Shown: in pieces, positions 3,326-27,914 of the stretch
Numbering within the stretch: the first letter of the stretch is position 1
How the letters are laid out: each line of letters opens with the position of its first letter
Translations under genes and position numbers: made by a program
Notes under the pieces: model-generated
What the model saw: only the letters and a program-made list of their open reading frames with translations
Told to the model about the DNA's origin: nothing
Database searches by the model: none
Source: Escherichia coli
GTDB taxonomy: Bacteria > Pseudomonadota > Gammaproteobacteria > Enterobacterales > Enterobacteriaceae
DNA length: 64,000 nucleotides
NCBI RefSeq assembly: GCF_013315695.1
Contig: NZ_CP054353.1
Strand: one strand, 5' to 3'

Positions 3326-4520
<1,195 letters not shown>

Positions 4521-4649
4521 CTTGTGAGTCCATTAAAACCCGATTTAAAACATTTTTATGCGTGTGTTTTCACAAAACAGATTTTCCGTTCCGCTGCCAT
4601 TTTTCATTTTCATTGATATCTAAGGCAACAAAAAATGGAGAGCCGAATC

Positions 4650-5672
4650 ATGTCTACGATGAATGTTTTAATTTGCCAGCAGCCGAAAGAATTAGTCTGG
4701 AAACAACGCGAGATACCTATTCCGGGTGACAATGAAGCATTAATAAAAATTAAGTCTGTCGGGATTTGCGGTACCGATATTCATGCCTGGGGTGGACATC
4801 AACCATTTTTTAGTTATCCACGGGTTTTAGGCCATGAAATATGTGGGGAGATTGTTGGGCTGGGTAAAAATATTGCTGATCTTAAAAATGGTCAGCAAGT
4901 TGCTGTGATCCCTTATGTTGCCTGTCAGCAATGCCCAGCGTGTAAAAGCGGTCGTACCAATTGCTGTGAAAAAATTTCAGTCATCGGCGTGCATCAGGAT
5001 GGCGGTTTTAGTGAGTATTTGAGCGTGCCGGTGGCGAACATTTTGCCCGCAGACGGTATTGACCCGCAGGCGGCCGCATTGATTGAACCTTTCGCTATTA
5101 GCGCTCATGCGGTGCGTCGCGCAGCCATTGCTCCCGGCGAGCAGGTGCTGGTGGTCGGGGCGGGGCCAATCGGTCTGGGCGCGGCGGCAATCGCTAAAGC
5201 CGATGGCGCACAGGTGGTGGTGGCGGATACCAGTCCGGCGCGCCGTGAACATGTGGCAACGCGTCTGGAGTTGCCCGTGCTGGACCCGTCAGCCGAAGAT
5301 TTTGACGCGCAGCTGCGGGCGCAGTTTGGTGGTTCGCTGGCGCAGAAAGTGATCGACGCGACAGGTAATCAACATGCGATGAATAACACCGTGAATCTGA
5401 TTCGTCACGGCGGCACGGTGGTATTTGTCGGCCTGTTTAAAGGTGAGTTGCAGTTCTCCGATCCGGAATTCCATAAAAAAGAAACGACGATGATGGGCAG
5501 CCGCAACGCCACGCCGGAAGATTTCGCTAAAGTCGGTCGACTGATGGCGGAAGGGAAAATCACTGCTGACATGATGTTAACCCATCGCTATCCGTTCGCC
5601 ACGCTGGCAGAAACCTACGAGCGCGATGTGATTAACAATCGTGATTTGATTAAGGGTGTAATTACTTTCTGA
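4650..5672 (+). CDS. lgoD: Zn-dependent L-galactonate 5-dehydrogenase (MDR alcohol dehydrogenase family)
   Basis: ORF with GHE..CG..C zinc-ADH motifs and GxGxxG Rossmann motif; ATG at 4650 preceded by ggag; track ORF starts 15 nt earlier. Confidence 0.85.
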   Translation: MSTMNVLICQQPKELVWKQREIPIPGDNEALIKIKSVGICGTDIHAWGGHQPFFSYPRVLGHEICGEIVGLGKNIADLKNGQQVAVIPYVACQQCPACKSGRTNCCEKISVIGVHQDGGFSEYLSVPVANILPADGIDPQAAALIEPFAISAHAVRRAAIAPGEQVLVVGAGPIGLGAAAIAKADGAQVVVADTSPARREHVATRLELPVLDPSAEDFDAQLRAQFGGSLAQKVIDATGNQHAMNNTVNLIRHGGTVVFVGLFKGELQFSDPEFHKKETTMMGSRNATPEDFAKVGRLMAEGKITADMMLTHRYPFATLAETYERDVINNRDLIKGVITF

Positions 5673-21125: not shown

Positions 21126-22199
21126 GTGGGGCAGCGAATACCTGTAACGCTTGGTAATATTGCGCCGTTGTCGCTAAGGCCGTTCCAGCCTGGACGGATT
21201 GCTCTGGTGTGCGAAGGCGGCGGACAACGTGGAATTTTCACGGCTGGCGTGCTGGATGAGTTTATGCGCGCGCAGTTTAATCCTTTCGATCTTTATCTCG
21301 GCACATCTGCCGGGGCGCAGAACCTCTCGGCGTATATCTGCAATCAGCCCGGTTACGCGCGCAAAGTCATCATGCGTTACACCACAAAACGCGAATTTTT
21401 CGATCCATTGCGCTTTGTCCGTGGAGGAAATCTTATCGATCTCGACTGGCTGGTGGAGGCCACCGCAAGCCAGATGCCGTTGCAAATGGACACCGCAGCG
21501 CGGTTATTTGACAGCGGCAAATCGTTTTATATGTGCGCCTGTCGTCAGGATGACTATGCGCCGAATTACTTTTTGCCAACTAAACAAAACTGGCTGGATG
21601 TGATTCGCGCCTCCAGTGCGATACCTGGCTTTTATCGTAGCGGAGTGTCGCTGGAAGGTATTAACTACCTGGATGGTGGGATCAGTGATGCGATCCCGGT
21701 TAAAGAGGCGGCAAGGCAGGGAGCAAAAACGTTGGTCGTCATCCGCACTGTGCCGTCACAAATGTACTACACGCCACAGTGGTTCAAACGCATGGAACGC
21801 TGGCTGGGTGACAGTAGCCTGCAGCCGCTGGTCAATCTGGTGCAGCATCATGAAACCAGCTATCGTGAGATTCAGCAATTTATTGAGAAACCACCGGGCC
21901 AGCTGCGGATATTCGAAATTTATCCGCCGAAGCCATTGCATAGTATCGCGCTCGGCAGTCGGATTCCGGCGCTGCGTGAAGACTATAAACTTGGGCGTTT
22001 ATGTGGGCGTTATTTTCTGGCAACGGTCGGTAAATTATTGACTGAAAAAGCGCCGCTGAGCCGCCATCTGGTGCCGGTGGTGACGCCGGAGTCGATCGTT
22101 ATTCCGCCTGCGCCAGTCGCCAACGATACGCTGGTTGCCGAAGTGAGCGACGCTCCGCAGGCGAACGACCCGACATTTAACAATGAGGATCTGGCTTGA
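21126..22199 (+). CDS. yjjU: Patatin-like phospholipase family protein
   Basis: GGGxRG and GTSAG patatin motifs; GTG start at 21126 after aggaagg. Confidence 0.8.
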   Translation: MGQRIPVTLGNIAPLSLRPFQPGRIALVCEGGGQRGIFTAGVLDEFMRAQFNPFDLYLGTSAGAQNLSAYICNQPGYARKVIMRYTTKREFFDPLRFVRGGNLIDLDWLVEATASQMPLQMDTAARLFDSGKSFYMCACRQDDYAPNYFLPTKQNWLDVIRASSAIPGFYRSGVSLEGINYLDGGISDAIPVKEAARQGAKTLVVIRTVPSQMYYTPQWFKRMERWLGDSSLQPLVNLVQHHETSYREIQQFIEKPPGQLRIFEIYPPKPLHSIALGSRIPALREDYKLGRLCGRYFLATVGKLLTEKAPLSRHLVPVVTPESIVIPPAPVANDTLVAEVSDAPQANDPTFNNEDLA

Positions 22200-22975
22200 T
22201 TTGCCGTTTTATCGACACCCACTGCCATTTTGATTTCCCGCCGTTTAGTGGCGATGAAGAGGCCAGCCTGCAACGCGCGGCACAAGCGGGCGTAGGCAAG
22301 ATCATTGTTCCGGCGACAGAGGCGGAAAATTTTGCCCGCGTGCAGGCGTTAGCGGAAAAATATCAACCGCTGTATGCCGCATTGGGCTTGCATCCTGGTA
22401 TGTTGGAAAAACATAGCGATGTGTCTCTTGATCAGCTACAGCAGGCGCTGGAAAGGCATCCGGCGAAGGTGGTGGCGGTGGGGGAAATCGGTCTGGATCT
22501 CTTTGGCGACGATCCGCAATTTGAGAGGCAGCAGTGGTTACTCGACGAACAACTGAAACTGGCGAAACGCTACGATCTGCCGGTGATCCTGCATTCACGA
22601 CGCACGCACGACAAACTGGCGATGCATCTTAAACGCCACGATTTACCGTGCACTGGCGTGGTTCATGGTTTTTCCGGCAGCCTGCAACAGGCCGAACGGT
22701 TTGTGCAACTGGGCTACAAAATTGGCGTAGGCGGGACTATCACCTATCCACGCGCCAGTAAAACCCGCGATGTCATCGCAAAATTACCGCTGGCATCGTT
22801 GTTGCTGGAAACCGACGCACCAGATATGCCGCTCAATGGTTTTCAGGGGCAGCCTAATCGCCCTGAACAGGCCGCCCGTGTGTTTGCCGTGCTTTGCGAG
22901 TTACGACCGGAACCGGCGGATGAGATTGCCGAAGTGTTGCTTAATAACACCTATACGTTGTTTAACGTGCCGTAG
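22196..22975 (+). CDS. yjjV: TatD-family metal-dependent hydrolase
   Basis: 259-aa ORF with HCHFDF motif; TTG start overlapping the yjjU stop. Confidence 0.8.
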   Translation: MICRFIDTHCHFDFPPFSGDEEASLQRAAQAGVGKIIVPATEAENFARVQALAEKYQPLYAALGLHPGMLEKHSDVSLDQLQQALERHPAKVVAVGEIGLDLFGDDPQFERQQWLLDEQLKLAKRYDLPVILHSRRTHDKLAMHLKRHDLPCTGVVHGFSGSLQQAERFVQLGYKIGVGGTITYPRASKTRDVIAKLPLASLLLETDAPDMPLNGFQGQPNRPEQAARVFAVLCELRPEPADEIAEVLLNNTYTLFNVP

Positions 22976-23091
22976 GCCGGACAAGGCGTTTACGCCGCAT
23001 CCGGCCGTTGGCGCACAATGCCTGATGCGACGCTTGACGCGTCTTATCATGCCTACAGGTCTGTGCCGATCCGTAGGCCACATCCGGCATG
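22976..23091. repeat. REP/BIME cluster between convergent yjjV and yjjW
   Basis: Three REP-like palindromic units (gccggacaaggcgtttacgccgcatccggc; gcctgatgcgacgcttgacgcgtcttatcatgcctac; gtaggccacatccggcatg). Confidence 0.75.
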
Positions 23092-23955
23092 TCACAAATA
23101 TAGCGCCGGAAATATTAACCGGCTCACCCCGCGCTCCCGTAACGCATCAGCCAGTTGTTCCACATCCTCCGGCGTGGCGCTCGGCCAGCTTTGCGCCTCG
23201 CCATACACGCCGTGGGCATGAAACGCGTTCAGGCGTACCGGAACATCGCCAAGTCCCTTGATTAACGCCGCCAGTTCTTCGATATGTTGCAAATAATCCA
23301 CCTGGCCAGGGATTACCAGCAAACGCAGTTCCGCCAGCTTACCGCGCTCTGCCAGCAAACAGATGCTGCGCTTGATCTGCTGATTATCGCGTCCGGTTAA
23401 TTGCTGATGACATTCGCTCCCCCACGCTTTGAGATCGAGCATTGCGCCGTCACACACCGGGAGCAATTTTTCCCAGCCGGTTTCGCTCAACATGCCGTTA
23501 CTGTCCACGAGGCAGGTGAGATGGCACAGTTGCGGATCGTTTTTGATGGCAGTAAACAGCGCCACCACAAACGGCAACTGGGTCGTGGCTTCGCCGCCGC
23601 TTACCGTTATCCCTTCAATAAACAGAACCGCTTTGCGGACATGGTTAAGCACCTCGTCCACGCTCATGGATTGCGCCATTGGCGTAGCATGTTGCGGACA
23701 CATCTTCAGGCAGGTATCACATTGCTCGCAGGCAGCCGCGCTCCACGCCACTTTGCCGTCGACAATCTGCAACGCCTGATGCGGACACTGCGGCACGCAC
23801 TCTCCGCAATCATTACAGCGCCCCATCGTCCACGGATTGTGACAGTTTTTGCAGCGCAGATTGCAGCCCTGCAAAAACAGAGCCAGACGACTGCCTGGCC
23901 CGTCAACGCAGGAGAAGGGGATAATCTTACTGACTAAAGCGCATCTGCTGTTCAT
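23092..23955 (-). CDS. yjjW: Glycyl-radical enzyme activating protein (radical SAM, PflA family)
   Basis: 287-aa ORF with CxxxCxxC ([12 protein letters not shown]) and extra Cys-rich ferredoxin-like clusters. Confidence 0.85.
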
Positions 23956-25477
23956 GGCTTATCACGCGCGGCTGGCGTTCCAGAATACGAGTGTTGCGTG
24001 CGGCTTCTTCTCCCAGCCAGGTAGTGTTGGTGCGTGAACCTTCGGCGCGATATTTTTCTAAATCCGACAAACGCACCATATAACCGGTAACGCGAACCAG
24101 ATCGTTACCGCTGACATTGGCGGTAAATTCACGCATTCCGGCTTTAAAGGCACCGAGGCAAAGCTGTACCAGCGCCTGCGGATTACGTTTGATGGTTTCG
24201 TCGAGCGTCAGAATGTCGCTGATGCCGGAATAATAATAAGCATGATGCGGGGCGACAGTTTGCAGATGGGTAATCGGATCTGGCTCATCGCCATATGGTA
24301 AACGCGCGCCCGGCGTGGTGCCGATATCGGAACTTATCCCCGACTGTGCGTGTAACATGGCGCGTTTTTGCCAGCCATATTTCACGGGGGTATTGGCGAC
24401 AAACTCCGCCAGTTGCGCGCTAATGCGATAACCCACTTCATTTGCGGCGGCCTCTTTACCGTAGCGTGCGGCAATCCCTTCTTTTTCACACAGCAAGTTA
24501 ACCGCTTCCGCCAGCCCATACATGCCAAACATCGGCACAAAACGTTCAGGGTTAATCAGCCCTTCTTTCACCAGGAAGCTATTCTCAAAGAAGTGTGATT
24601 GTTGATAGAGGAATTCACACCGCGCATCGATGATGGCGATCTGCTGTTGGCAGTAGTGCGGTAGAGTGCGCGTAAAGAAGTCCTCCAGCGATTCACTGCG
24701 CTCGGCAATGGCTTTCAGGTTTAGGCGTACCAGCGTGCTGCCACCACCCGCCAGCGGCAGTGAGTTGTAACAGCTCACAATCCCGTAGCCCCCTTTTGTG
24801 AAAATTTTATCATGCACCGGACCGTTGGCGATGTGCGGTTTGCTACATTCACAGATGTTTTTCGCCACTTCCAGCAGCAGGTCATCAGGGGTGATATCAG
24901 GATCGTAGATAAAGGTCAGGTTCGGTGAAACCTGCTTCAGCTCTGCGTCTGCACGTAATATCGCACGGGTAATGGGCGAATCAGACGGGCCGATATTGGC
25001 ATGCATAAAGGCGTCTGGCAGGGTTCTGTCGAGGTAACGCCAGAAACGTTTTATTCGAATATCGATCTCGTCTTGTGTTAGAATTCTAACATACGGTTGC
25101 AACAACGCATCCAGTTGCCCCAGGTAGACCGGCATCGATGTGACCGAAGGAACGTGGTGGTAAAGAATGGTCAGCAGAGAGAGTGCGTCATCAAGATCTT
25201 TTGCGCCTTCCAGCTCCAGCCATTCGGAACCGTTGGCCAAAAAACGGGCGTAATCGGGTAAGACATAGCGCGGTTTGTACGGCGCATGACCTTCAAACAT
25301 ATCGCAGATTACCCCCTCATCCAGCGCGCGGCGGGCTTCGGCAGGCAGCTGTGGGTAAGGCAGATTATTTTCTGCTTCCAGTGCCAGAAAATGGCGCTTC
25401 TGCTCCGGGCTAAGTACCGGGCTGGTGACAATTTGCTGGCAACGTTGTTGCAGTGCATTTTCATGAGAAGTGGGCAT
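23927..25477 (-). CDS. yjjI: Uncharacterised glycine-radical-like protein (DUF3029)
   Basis: 516-aa ORF overlapping the yjjW start; co-oriented with its predicted activase. Confidence 0.8.
24797..24812. promoter_or_regulatory. Candidate distal DeoR operator (OE-like)
   Basis: tgtgaaaattttatca, 12/16 identical to the O1 palindrome; 279 bp upstream of O1, inside yjjI coding sequence. Confidence 0.45.
25076..25091. promoter_or_regulatory. DeoR operator O1 (deoP1 region)
   Basis: Perfect 16-bp palindrome tgttagaattctaaca, exactly 599 bp upstream of the second palindrome. Confidence 0.8.
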
Positions 25478-25674
25478 CTTCTTTTCCTTTTATGCCGAAG
25501 GTGATGCGCCATTGTAAGAAGTTTCGTGATGTTCACTTTGATCCTGATACGTTTGCCACCACTGACGCATTCATTTGAAAGTGAATTATTTGAACCAGAT
25601 CGCATTACAGTGATGCAAACTTGTAAGTAGATTTCCTTAATTGTGATGTACATCGAAGTGTGTTGCGGAGTAGA

Positions 25675-25690
25675 TGTTAGAATACTAACA
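25675..25690. promoter_or_regulatory. DeoR operator O2 (deoP2 region)
   Basis: 16-bp palindrome tgttagaatactaaca about 45 bp upstream of deoC; CRP/CytR-like tgtga motif nearby at about 25642. Confidence 0.8.
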
Positions 25691-25734
25691 AACTCGCAAG
25701 GTGAATTTTATTGGCGACAAGCCAGGAGAATGAA

Positions 25735-26514
25735 ATGACTGATCTGAAAGCAAGCAGCCTGCGTGCACTGAAATTGATGGACCTGACCACCCTGAATGAC
25801 GACGACACCGACGAGAAAGTGATCGCCCTGTGTCATCAGGCCAAAACTCCGGTCGGCAATACCGCCGCTATCTGTATCTATCCTCGCTTTATCCCAATTG
25901 CTCGCAAAACGCTGAAAGAGCAGGGCACCCCGGAAATCCGTATCGCTACGGTAACTAACTTCCCACACGGTAACGATGACATCGAAATCGCGCTGGCAGA
26001 AACCCGTGCGGCAATCGCCTACGGTGCCGATGAAGTTGACGTAGTGTTCCCGTACCGTGCGCTGATGGCAGGTAACGAGCAGGTTGGTTTTGACCTGGTG
26101 AAAGCCTGTAAAGAGGCTTGCGATGCGGCGAACGTACTGCTGAAAGTGATTATTGAAACCGGCGAACTGAAAGACGAAGCGCTGATCCGTAAAGCGTCTG
26201 AAATCTCCATCAAAGCGGGTGCTGACTTCATCAAAACCTCTACCGGTAAAGTGGCTGTGAATGCGACGCCGGAAAGCGCGCGCATCATGATGGAAGTGAT
26301 CCGCGATATGGGCGTAGAAAAAACCGTTGGTTTCAAACCGGCGGGCGGCGTGCGTACTGCGGAAGATGCGCAGAAATATCTCGCCATTGCAGATGAACTG
26401 TTCGGTGCTGACTGGGCTGATGTGCGTCACTACCGCTTTGGTGCTTCCAGCTTGCTGGCAAGCCTGCTGAAAGCTCTGGGCCACGGCGACGGTAAGAGCG
26501 CCAGCAGCTACTAA
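25735..26514 (+). CDS. deoC: Deoxyribose-phosphate aldolase
   Basis: 259-aa from ATG 25735 after aggag ([26 protein letters not shown]). Confidence 0.95.
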
Positions 26515-26591
26515 GGCTTGATTTGCCGGATGATGCAGCGATGCTCATCCGGTTCCCCGATTACCTCGTCTCTTTTCCACGGGAGGTTACC

Positions 26592-27914
26592 TTGTTTCTC
26601 GCACAAGAAATTATTCGTAAAAAACGTGATGGTCATGCGCTGAGTGATGATGAAATTCGTTTCTTTATCAATGGCATTCGCGACAACACTATCTCCGAAG
26701 GGCAGATTGCCGCCCTCGCGATGACCATTTTCTTCCACGATATGACAATGCCTGAGCGTGTCTCGCTGACCATGGCGATGCGAGATTCAGGAACCGTTCT
26801 CGACTGGAAAAGCCTGCATCTGAATGGCCCGATTGTTGATAAACACTCGACCGGCGGTGTCGGCGATGTGACTTCGCTGATGTTGGGGCCGATGGTCGCT
26901 GCCTGTGGCGGCTATATTCCGATGATCTCCGGTCGCGGCCTCGGTCATACTGGCGGTACGCTCGACAAACTGGAATCCATCCCTGGCTTCGACATTTTCC
27001 CGGATGACAACCGTTTCCGCGAAATTATTAAAGACGTCGGCGTGGCGATTATCGGCCAGACCAGCTCACTGGCTCCGGCGGATAAACGTTTCTACGCGAC
27101 CCGCGATATTACCGCAACCGTGGATTCAATCCCGCTGATCACCGCCTCTATTCTGGCGAAGAAACTGGCGGAAGGTCTGGACGCGCTGGTGATGGACGTG
27201 AAAGTGGGTAGCGGCGCGTTTATGCCGACCTACGAACTCTCTGAAGCCCTTGCCGAAGCGATTGTTGGCGTGGCTAACGGCGCTGGCGTGCGCACCACCG
27301 CGCTGCTCACCGATATGAATCAGGTACTGGCCTCCAGTGCAGGTAACGCGGTTGAAGTTCGTGAAGCGGTGCAGTTCCTGACGGGTGAATATCGTAACCC
27401 GCGTCTGTTTGATGTCACGATGGCACTGTGCGTGGAGATGCTGATCTCCGGCAAACTGGCGAAAGATGACGCCGAAGCGCGCGCGAAATTACAGGCGGTG
27501 CTGGACAACGGTAAAGCGGCAGAAGTCTTTGGTCGTATGGTAGCGGCACAAAAAGGCCCGACCGACTTCGTTGAGAACTACGCGAAGTATCTGCCGACAG
27601 CGATGCTGACGAAAGCAGTCTATGCTGATACCGAAGGGTTTGTCAGTGAAATGGATACCCGCGCGCTGGGGATGGCAGTGGTTGCAATGGGCGGCGGACG
27701 CCGTCAGGCATCTGACACCATCGATTACAGCGTCGGCTTTACTGATATGGCGCGTCTGGGCGACCAGGTAGACGGTCAGCGTCCGCTGGCAGTTATCCAC
27801 GCGAAAGACGAAAACAGCTGGCAGGAAGCGGCGAAAGCGGTGAAAGCGGCAATTAAACTTGCCGATAAAGCACCGGAAAGCACACCAACTGTCTATCGCC
27901 GTATCAGCGAATAA
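26592..27914 (+). CDS. deoA: Thymidine phosphorylase
   Basis: 440-aa from TTG 26592 after gggagg ([22 protein letters not shown]...). Confidence 0.9.

Follow-up and report, generated by a model that had tools for sequence, protein, structure and literature searches.

What reaction does yjjI-yjjW catalyse, and on which substrate? The question arises because Escherichia coli K-12 carries in these two genes a conserved, regulated and oxygen-sensitive radical enzyme without a defined reaction. Time and again, glycyl radical enzymes have proved to carry out gut reactions that are chemically demanding and of medical relevance, amongst them the conversion of choline to trimethylamine and the degradation of hydroxyproline and isethionate. 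We examined the pair in a 64,000-nucleotide stretch of E. coli chromosomal DNA (contig NZ_CP054353.1, assembly GCF_013315695.1; hereafter the window), in which it occupies positions 23,092 to 25,477. An initial annotation, made from the sequence alone, had described an uncharacterised glycyl radical enzyme-like protein with its own activase, and its reading is supported, each element that we checked having held up. This includes the view that substrate and reaction are unassigned: the pair is an already catalogued orphan, annotated as yjjI and yjjW in RefSeq, and the NCBIfam models for both proteins (TIGR04040 and TIGR04041) were still typed 'hypoth_equivalog' in the June 2026 release. Full-text searches, with subscription-only papers outside their coverage, returned expression, chromatin immunoprecipitation (ChIP) and prediction papers only, and neither published enzymology nor any other biochemical assignment of either gene. 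We propose that yjjI-yjjW is an FNR-activated, translationally coupled operon for a minimal glycyl radical enzyme and its activase, which may carry out a redox-neutral elimination on a nucleoside-derived ribosyl substrate, and we place the probability of this reading as a whole at about 0.45.

YjjI and YjjW as a glycyl radical enzyme and activase

That YjjI and YjjW are a glycyl radical enzyme and its activase is, in our judgement, close to certain. YjjI scores 787.8 bits against TIGR04040 ('YjjI family glycine radical enzyme'; cut-off 498.3) and matches Pfam PF11230, formerly DUF3029, over residues 22-504 (E 2.6e-220), which together with the coordinates of the reading frame bears out the size and family first given for it. 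A library-wide HMMER search for the family yielded 539 representative clusters, only around 25 of them full length, and conservation was read from an alignment of 23 members sharing 34-90% identity (alignment A1). In all 23 sequences the R462-x-x-G465 core of the RVTGY motif is invariant, so the C-terminal glycine-radical motif, whose absence would have spoken against the initial annotation, is present and conserved. S235, C236 and N238 are likewise invariant, C236 being the sole conserved cysteine, and invariant positions number around 30 in total. The structure prediction that the initial annotation had proposed as a check gave a confident AlphaFold model (predicted local distance difference test score, pLDDT, 92; predicted template modelling score, pTM, 0.91), in which Cys236 sits on a beta-hairpin formed by residues 231-241. 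When this model was used as a Foldseek query, the first 20 places were all taken by class III ribonucleotide reductases, and hhalign between YjjI and E. coli NrdD returned a probability of 89% (E 2.4e-6) over YjjI residues 17-362. YjjI therefore displays every sequence and fold feature of the superfamily: the RVxG[FWY] motif, the finger-loop cysteine, the ten-stranded alpha/beta barrel as in ribonucleotide reductases, and an adjoining gene, yjjW, for a radical S-adenosylmethionine (SAM) activase with a CxxxCxxC motif.

Alignment of the family profile with pyruvate formate-lyase (PFL) brings YjjI RVTGY opposite RVSGY, pairing Gly465 with PFL G734, and 'GIVSCYNSL' opposite 'AIACCVSPM', with C236 opposite C419. 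The profile's matches in the PDB, to PFL and NrdD, were weak (E 0.003-0.02) and were used for loop alignment only. A PDB search with the YjjI sequence itself gave only a chance match (E 1.1), and no solved YjjI structure was found in the PDB by sequence or fold.

YjjW in turn scores 398.9 bits against TIGR04041 ('YjjW family activase'; cut-off 250.2) and matches the Pfam Radical_SAM and Fer4 dicluster domains, whilst TIGR02494, for a generic activase, and the model for the activase of hydroxyproline dehydratase, the best from outside the family, stay below their cut-offs. Its closest solved relative is the PFL-activating enzyme (E 4.6e-18 in a PDB sequence search). Upstream of the radical-SAM motif CNLRCKNC lies VDGPGSR (residues 17-23) and downstream lie two ferredoxin-type motifs, C47-x2-C-x2-C-x3-C57 and C76-x2-C-x2-C-x3-C86, so that all the signatures of an activase with auxiliary clusters (DGPGxR, CxxxCxxC and two CxxCxxCxxxC motifs) are present. 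Motifs, TIGR04041 and Pfam thus agree with the radical-SAM activase with ferredoxin-like clusters that had been described. Among YjjW-family activases the two-cluster insert occurs in E. coli and in the collected homologue loci (numbered with the prefix L) L085, L086, L089 and L094, and it is missing from the 250-262-residue proteins of Pasteurellaceae, L081, L095 and L097; since both forms belong to one family, the auxiliary clusters are dispensable within it.

The short overlap noted between the two genes is 29 nt long (Table 1), and their translation is likely to be coupled across it. Overlaps of 4-11 nt are also found in the distant homologue loci L081, L085 and L089.

One might ask whether the two genes are a relic, in decay or no longer catalytic, given that neither a phenotype nor an activity is reported in the literature searched and that some Pasteurellaceae-like loci have yjjI without an adjoining activase. 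We consider this highly improbable. By megablast, 5423 of the 5426 complete E. coli genomes retain the 2386-bp yjjI-yjjW stretch at 95% identity or above, the genes are intact at this identity in 5422, the invariant residues have persisted across the whole identity range of the family, and the gene is regulated and its product detected. Three of the 5426 places matching yjjI-yjjW are plasmid-borne rather than chromosomal.

Comparison with known glycyl radical enzymes

YjjI is essentially a bare catalytic barrel, and no smaller type of glycyl radical enzyme is known. It shares most with the anaerobic ribonucleotide reductase system NrdD/NrdG: profile homology extends over most of the barrel, the glycine loop and cysteine finger loop are present, a radical-SAM activase gene lies next door, expression is anaerobic and neighbouring genes are nucleoside-related. 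The marks of NrdD membership are nevertheless missing. YjjI is around 200 residues shorter and lacks the N-terminal ATP-cone/allosteric region (the hhalign match begins at NrdD residue 120), and it has no cysteine after residue 440 and hence none of the C-terminal zinc-binding cysteines. The second catalytic cysteine of NrdD, C175, falls in a gap beside YjjI R70-Y71, in a register that is moderately reliable. Pfam NRDD reaches only E 0.4 over a partial stretch of YjjI, no NCBIfam NrdD model was reported for it, and the two-cluster ferredoxin insert of YjjW is absent from NrdG.

These comparisons bear directly on whether YjjI could be a formate-driven reductase of the ribonucleotide reductase type, acting on nucleosides or pentose phosphates, for example by converting a ribose moiety to deoxyribose and so both inducing and feeding the Deo pathway. 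The inducer of DeoR is deoxyribose 5-phosphate, and such a reaction would fit the position of yjjI, divergent from deoC and inside the DeoR loop described below, as well as the coincidence of its FNR-controlled expression with formate production; the class III reductases are also its nearest structural neighbours and its profile is homologous to NrdD. Known class III chemistry, however, requires a second cysteine, whereas YjjI conserves only one, leaves the C175 position in a gap beside the invariant R70-Y71 and is devoid of the zinc cysteines. We therefore regard a reductase as improbable.

With PflB/PflA the RVxGY motif is shared, the cysteine loop can be aligned residue for residue and the PFL-activating enzyme is the closest solved relative of YjjW, as noted above, but YjjI is around 240 residues shorter than PflB and carries Ser235-Cys236 in place of the Cys418-Cys419 pair of PFL. 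A 2-keto-acid lyase similar to PFL, as an older 'pflB homologue' label on the Haemophilus orthologue might suggest, could draw on the weak PFL profile matches around the cysteine loop (E about 0.003) and on faint precomputed Pfam PFL-like matches in some YjjI homologues. With Ser-Cys at the loop, no match of E. coli YjjI to the Pfam PFL-like or Gly_radical models and a fold nearer to NrdD, such an activity is very unlikely indeed.

A third group, the eliminase-type enzymes, was represented by glycerol and propanediol dehydratases, hydroxyproline dehydratase, the choline TMA-lyase CutC, the isethionate sulfite-lyase IslA, and PflD and YbiW of E. coli. Like YjjI these have a single catalytic cysteine, and their activases resemble YjjW in having two auxiliary ferredoxin-like clusters; redox-neutral 1,2-elimination would also be the most plausible chemistry. 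They are considerably larger, at 760-870 residues against 516. Eliminase-type enzymes also carry a Cys-x-Glu loop, whose glutamate, two positions beyond the cysteine, serves as general base, where YjjI has an invariant Cys236-Tyr237-Asn238, and we know of none that acts on nucleosides. Other invariant residues of YjjI that are candidates for acid/base roles are E62, H159, E305, H376 and D384.

On these comparisons the YjjI family is the closest known structural relative of the anaerobic ribonucleotide reductase among glycyl radical enzymes that are not reductases, a closeness that bears on the evolution of the superfamily.

The column preceding the invariant His159 (Met158 in E. coli) differs between lineages (alignments A1 and A3): Phe-Cys-His is invariant in the Pasteurellaceae/Firmicutes branch, enterobacteria have Phe-Met-His, and Val, Ala or Thr is found elsewhere. 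The cysteine is thus a lineage-specific second cysteine beside a catalytic-looking histidine.

Gene neighbourhoods of yjjI

The neighbours of yjjI were compared across 170 usable loci, drawn from 80 species-representative genomes (the best 80 of at least 593 matched species), 17 exact-protein look-ups and 80 loci from a metagenome scan queried with the second YjjI sequence branch. Neighbours were labelled from seed proteins that had themselves been checked against curated models. An activase gene lies within two genes of yjjI in 122 of the 170 loci. Besides the activase, nucleoside uptake and catabolism is the only recurring neighbour theme, and 20% of the genes lying no more than four positions from yjjI are nucleoside-related, as against 4.5% further out. 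What is new here is that yjjI-yjjW stands beside or inside nucleoside genes in several differently arranged lineages, if not universally.

The arrangements are diverse. In Enterobacteriaceae, Hafnia and Edwardsiella a divergent deoCABD lies beside yjjI, and in Kluyvera and Edwardsiella nupC adjoins yjjW. Gilliamella has the same-strand series deoD-nupG-add-cpdB-cdd-pdp-ushA-yjjI-yjjW, its genes scoring above the cut-offs of curated models, whilst Actinobacillus has yjjI-yjjW-nupC and ten Pasteurellaceae-like metagenomic loci have yjjI-yjjW-nupC-deoD. Genes for a RihC-like ribonucleoside hydrolase, a ribokinase-like protein and a DeoD-type protein stand directly upstream of yjjI in L089 and L098. 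In L097, L152 and L163 the pair interrupts the operon of a Bmp-type ATP-binding cassette (ABC) importer, with the binding protein on one side and the ATPase/permeases on the other, and L165 and L169 show the order Bmp-yjjI-ABC, with no yjjW labelled by open reading frame calling. That the Bmp transporters prove the substrate to be a nucleoside was a claim we softened, their best curated model being 'putative B6' and well below cut-off. The contexts of L081-L084, L086, L092 and L094-L096 were uninformative. The invariant residues of YjjI are common to both sequence branches, and contexts from either branch therefore bear on the same reaction; as far as the alignments indicate, a single reaction type is likely throughout the family. 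An independent network study of 2009 had already placed YjjI in a module of nucleotide transport and deoxyribonucleoside degradation.

Taking neighbourhoods and fold together, we consider the chances of a nucleoside-derived substrate to be about even. The main rival is that YjjI is a true glycyl radical enzyme whose substrate has nothing to do with nucleosides, for instance a small diol or some other metabolite of anaerobic cells, a sugar phosphate or glycerophospho-compound included, in which case the neighbourhood signal would stem from genome history and from the regulatory region held in common with deo. Two thirds of the sequence clusters are without nearby nucleoside genes, and some loci have quite different company: L085 has a major facilitator superfamily transporter, a glycerophosphodiester phosphodiesterase and a haloacid dehalogenase-type phosphatase, an iron alcohol dehydrogenase gene runs convergently in L095 and L096, and the ligand of the Bmp transporter is uncertain. 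Against this, gene orders that are unrelated to one another repeatedly show the nucleoside link, as do both sequence branches, the tight same-strand operons with nupC-deoD and with the ABC importer are poorly explained by one ancestral arrangement, and the nearest fold is that of a nucleotide-binding enzyme. An unrelated substrate consequently seems to us possible, though rather unlikely.

Proposed reaction of YjjI

Conserved motifs and established glycyl radical enzyme chemistry together allow the steps of the reaction to be proposed. Reduced YjjW would cleave S-adenosylmethionine at its CxxxCxxC [4Fe-4S] cluster, and the 5'-deoxyadenosyl radical so formed would take a hydrogen atom from Gly465 of YjjI. 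The resulting stable glycyl radical would transiently oxidise Cys236 on the facing finger loop, and the Cys236 thiyl radical would then take a hydrogen atom from the substrate. This substrate may be a nucleoside or else a pentose, phosphorylated or not, that Deo-type enzymes free from nucleosides, and the chemistry may be a radical 1,2-elimination on the ribosyl moiety with loss of water, phosphate or base. Ribonucleotide reductases, in their first half-reaction, and glycyl radical enzymes of the eliminase type provide precedents for 1,2-elimination. Elimination is favoured over reduction because YjjI has a single conserved cysteine and neither a reducing cysteine nor a zinc site; reasoning by analogy in this way, we put elimination-type chemistry forward only tentatively. 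The invariant polar and basic residues (R70, Y71, H159, N186, R251, E305, H376, Q378, D384 and R392) would suit a nucleoside or pentose-phosphate ligand.

A more specific version of this proposal is possible, if doubtful: YjjI may be a bare barrel similar to ribonucleotide reductase that acts on free nucleosides or derived pentose phosphates rather than on nucleoside triphosphates, by 2'-dehydration, by elimination of base or phosphate or, less probably, by formate-driven deoxygenation, with its product feeding the Deo pathway. If true, the product could induce the divergent Deo pathway through deoxyribose 5-phosphate, YjjI would add to the catabolism or salvage of nucleosides an anaerobic step not recognised before, and the enzyme would be an extant intermediate linking ribonucleotide reductases to PFL-type glycyl radical enzymes. 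In practical terms, the search for a substrate is narrowed to a short list of nucleosides and of the phosphates of ribose or deoxyribose, in the presence or absence of formate.

Several observations weigh against an elimination on a nucleoside-derived substrate. The link to nucleoside genes is found in only 10 of 30 clusters at 75% identity and 33 of 95 at 90%, in loci that are related by phylogeny and so count as non-independent events, and none was seen in Vibrionaceae, Shewanella, Rhodobacteraceae, Providencia, Erysipelotrichaceae, Fonticella or an actinobacterial-looking group. In Enterobacteriaceae the adjacency to deo could have come about accidentally, through promoters that happen to overlap, and the closest curated model of the Bmp transporter, far below its cut-off, is a 'putative B6' transporter, so that the ligand is not established. 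The choice of elimination-type chemistry is speculative, resting as it does on analogy and on missing reductase features, and since the hhalign register near the cysteine loop is off by several residues, the absence of a C175 equivalent is only moderately secure. Finally, published co-expression of yjjI with narG suggests a different physiological context.

Anaerobic control and the DeoR operators

Published data point to anaerobic control of yjjI. ChIP followed by sequencing (ChIP-seq), combined with expression analysis, counted it amongst the operons directly activated by FNR, a second data set from a study of the HU regulon classed it likewise, and a 4.3-fold induction under anaerobiosis was reported in Yersinia intermedia. 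YjjI protein has been detected in proteomics, and a single-cell study included yjjI in an anaerobic-respiration gene set. The published FNR peak corresponds to approximately position 25570 of the window after conversion between genome versions, and thus lies between two FNR-like sites with three mismatches each (25538-25551 and 25590-25603) without allowing a choice between them. The former, TTGATCCTGATACG, is centred around 40 bp upstream of the transcription start inferred from the TACAAT hexamer. A consensus promoter scan called no full or convincing yjjI promoter, and the half of the intergenic region proximal to yjjI contains no FNR site with two mismatches or fewer, the sole match of that quality (25643-25656) coinciding with the CRP site of deoP2. 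In enterotoxigenic E. coli (ETEC), CRP ChIP-seq gave a peak at yjjI/deoC with a motif near-identical to TGTGATGTACATCGAA. A second CRP peak in that study, within yjjI at window positions of about 24900-25100, may belong to the embedded deoP1 region.

Because yjjI is co-expressed with narG in both E. coli and Salmonella, a function of YjjI in nitrate, nitrite or nitric oxide metabolism has been proposed, and a multi-species biclustering analysis did group yjjI with nar genes and with FNR and NarL-like motifs; membership of the anaerobic-respiration set points the same way. This evidence is one of co-expression, which common FNR control explains, and for that reason we rejected the prediction of a role in nitrogen metabolism. 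No conserved nitrogen-oxide genes lie beside yjjI in the 170 loci. A nitrogen-oxide role accordingly appears most unlikely. To our knowledge no glycyl radical enzyme acts on inorganic nitrogen species.

yjjI also overlaps the control region of deo, from which the locus is divergent as described initially: deoC starts at 25735 on the plus strand. The DeoR operators that had been noted in the 5' coding region of yjjI are there, the perfect O1 marking the deoP1 promoter region, antisense to yjjI. Sequences matching TGTTAGAATTCTAACA occur twice in the whole window against 0.21 expected by chance, and O1 occupies the same yjjI codon position in Citrobacter, Salmonella, Lelliottia, Leclercia, Kluyvera, Hafnia and Edwardsiella; the operators at yjjI-deoC are real conserved features and not chance matches. 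In Proteus, Providencia, Gilliamella and Aliivibrio, which have no deo beside yjjI, the intragenic O1 is absent. As O1 is kept within yjjI only beside deo, operator and deoP1 have been maintained inside the coding sequence across genera, which provides a clean natural case of regulatory elements preserved within a divergent gene. A candidate third operator, OE, lies deeper in yjjI, 279 bp from O1 centre to centre, and presumably corresponds to the third operator of the deo literature, for which we take the OE-O1 distance to be 278 bp.

From the positions of these operators we infer that the yjjI promoter and the first 386 nt of the gene lie within the O1-O2 loop, facing antisense transcription from deoP1. 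Coupling of its expression to deoxynucleosides is therefore probable, and yjjI probably responds to the availability of deoxynucleosides in addition to anaerobiosis.

Table 1. Coordinates of the yjjI-yjjW locus in the window, and of the YjjW-family activases compared (in their own loci)
Feature	Position	Strand	Description
yjjI coding sequence	23927..25477	minus	ATG start, 516 aa; minimal glycyl radical enzyme, YjjI family
yjjW coding sequence	23092..23955	minus	ATG start, 287 aa; radical-SAM activase for glycyl radical enzyme
yjjI end/yjjW start overlap	23927..23955	minus	29 nt, out of frame
RVTGY glycyl-radical motif	24080..24094	minus	yjjI codons 462-466; regular-expression match; predicted radical Gly465 at 24083-24085
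S-C-Y-N, tip of cysteine finger loop	24764..24775	minus	yjjI codons 235-238; Cys236 is the predicted thiyl-radical residue
CNLRCKNC, radical-SAM [4Fe-4S] motif	23842..23865	minus	YjjW codons 31-38 (C31-x3-C35-x2-C38); Pfam Radical_SAM, Fer4_12
Two CxxCxxCxxxC motifs	23698..23817	minus	YjjW codons 47-86; auxiliary ferredoxin-like clusters; Fer4_9, Fer4_7 over 46-90
DeoR operator O1	25076-25091		TGTTAGAATTCTAACA, 0 mismatches; 16-bp palindrome; yjjI codons 129-134
DeoR operator O2 at deoP2	25675-25690		1 mismatch to TGTTAGAATTCTAACA; yjjI-deoC intergenic; 599 bp from O1
Candidate third DeoR operator (OE)	24797-24812		12/16 bases; yjjI codons 222-227
FNR-like site TTGATCCTGATACG	25538..25551		3 mismatches to TTGAT-N4-ATCAA; candidate class II FNR site of yjjI
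Candidate -10 hexamer TACAAT	25511..25516	minus	putative yjjI promoter, read from the sequence
CRP-like site	25589..25604		fits upstream CRP site of deoP2; also FNR-like (25590-25603), 3 mismatches; alternative FNR target
CRP site of deoP2, TGTGATGTACATCGAA	25642..25657		scan match; ETEC CRP peak with near-identical motif
YjjW-family activase, L093	10547-11335
YjjW-family activase, L097	10520-11287
YjjW-family activase, L081	9557-10309
YjjW-family activase, L095	10523-11305

Additional features of the locus and its homologues

Codons 24-29 of yjjW (23870-23885, minus strand) contain, in sense orientation, a sigma-54 promoter-like element, CTGGCTCTGTTTTTGCA, which corresponds to IS57, one of the intragenic sites reported from sigma-54 ChIP-seq. 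Downstream of yjjW, a consensus promoter/terminator scan found no intrinsic terminator. The convergent junction with yjjV (tatD-like) holds an element derived from a repetitive extragenic palindromic (REP) sequence at 22975-23053, which matches Rfam naRNA4 with 71.2 bits, above the gathering score; a scan of positions 22000-27000 with Rfam gave this match, outside the genes, and no other.

Amongst the homologues, protein P0004 (574 aa, on a 2.9-kb contig) joins PF11230 to a DeoC-type aldolase domain, PF01791. As yjjI and deoC are divergent, this fusion is probably an artefact of assembly or gene calling. The homologue in L091 (1264-2805, GCA_024449855.1) does not translate to its recorded protein under the standard bacterial code, for which an alternative genetic code is one guess. 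In this locus a gene for a BPD_transp_2-type ABC permease, of the type found in Bmp operons, lies directly upstream and no activase is present downstream.

In one group of Pasteurellaceae-like loci (L110-L127, L131, L133, L155 and L172; for example L113, 7116-8663) an intact yjjI of 515 aa stands between yczE and recQ without adjoining yjjW, nupC or deoD, whilst sister loci with the same upstream pgk-fba genes have the full yjjI-yjjW-nupC-deoD series. Either these YjjI proteins are served by another activase or the system is being lost.

In a further lineage (L089, at 3806-5341, L090 and L098), a gene of the sulfatase/phosphoesterase family, arylsulfatase-like but below cut-off, is placed directly upstream of yjjI, between it and the gene for a DeoD-type phosphorylase, which hints that YjjI may there encounter an esterified (sulfated or phosphorylated) substrate.

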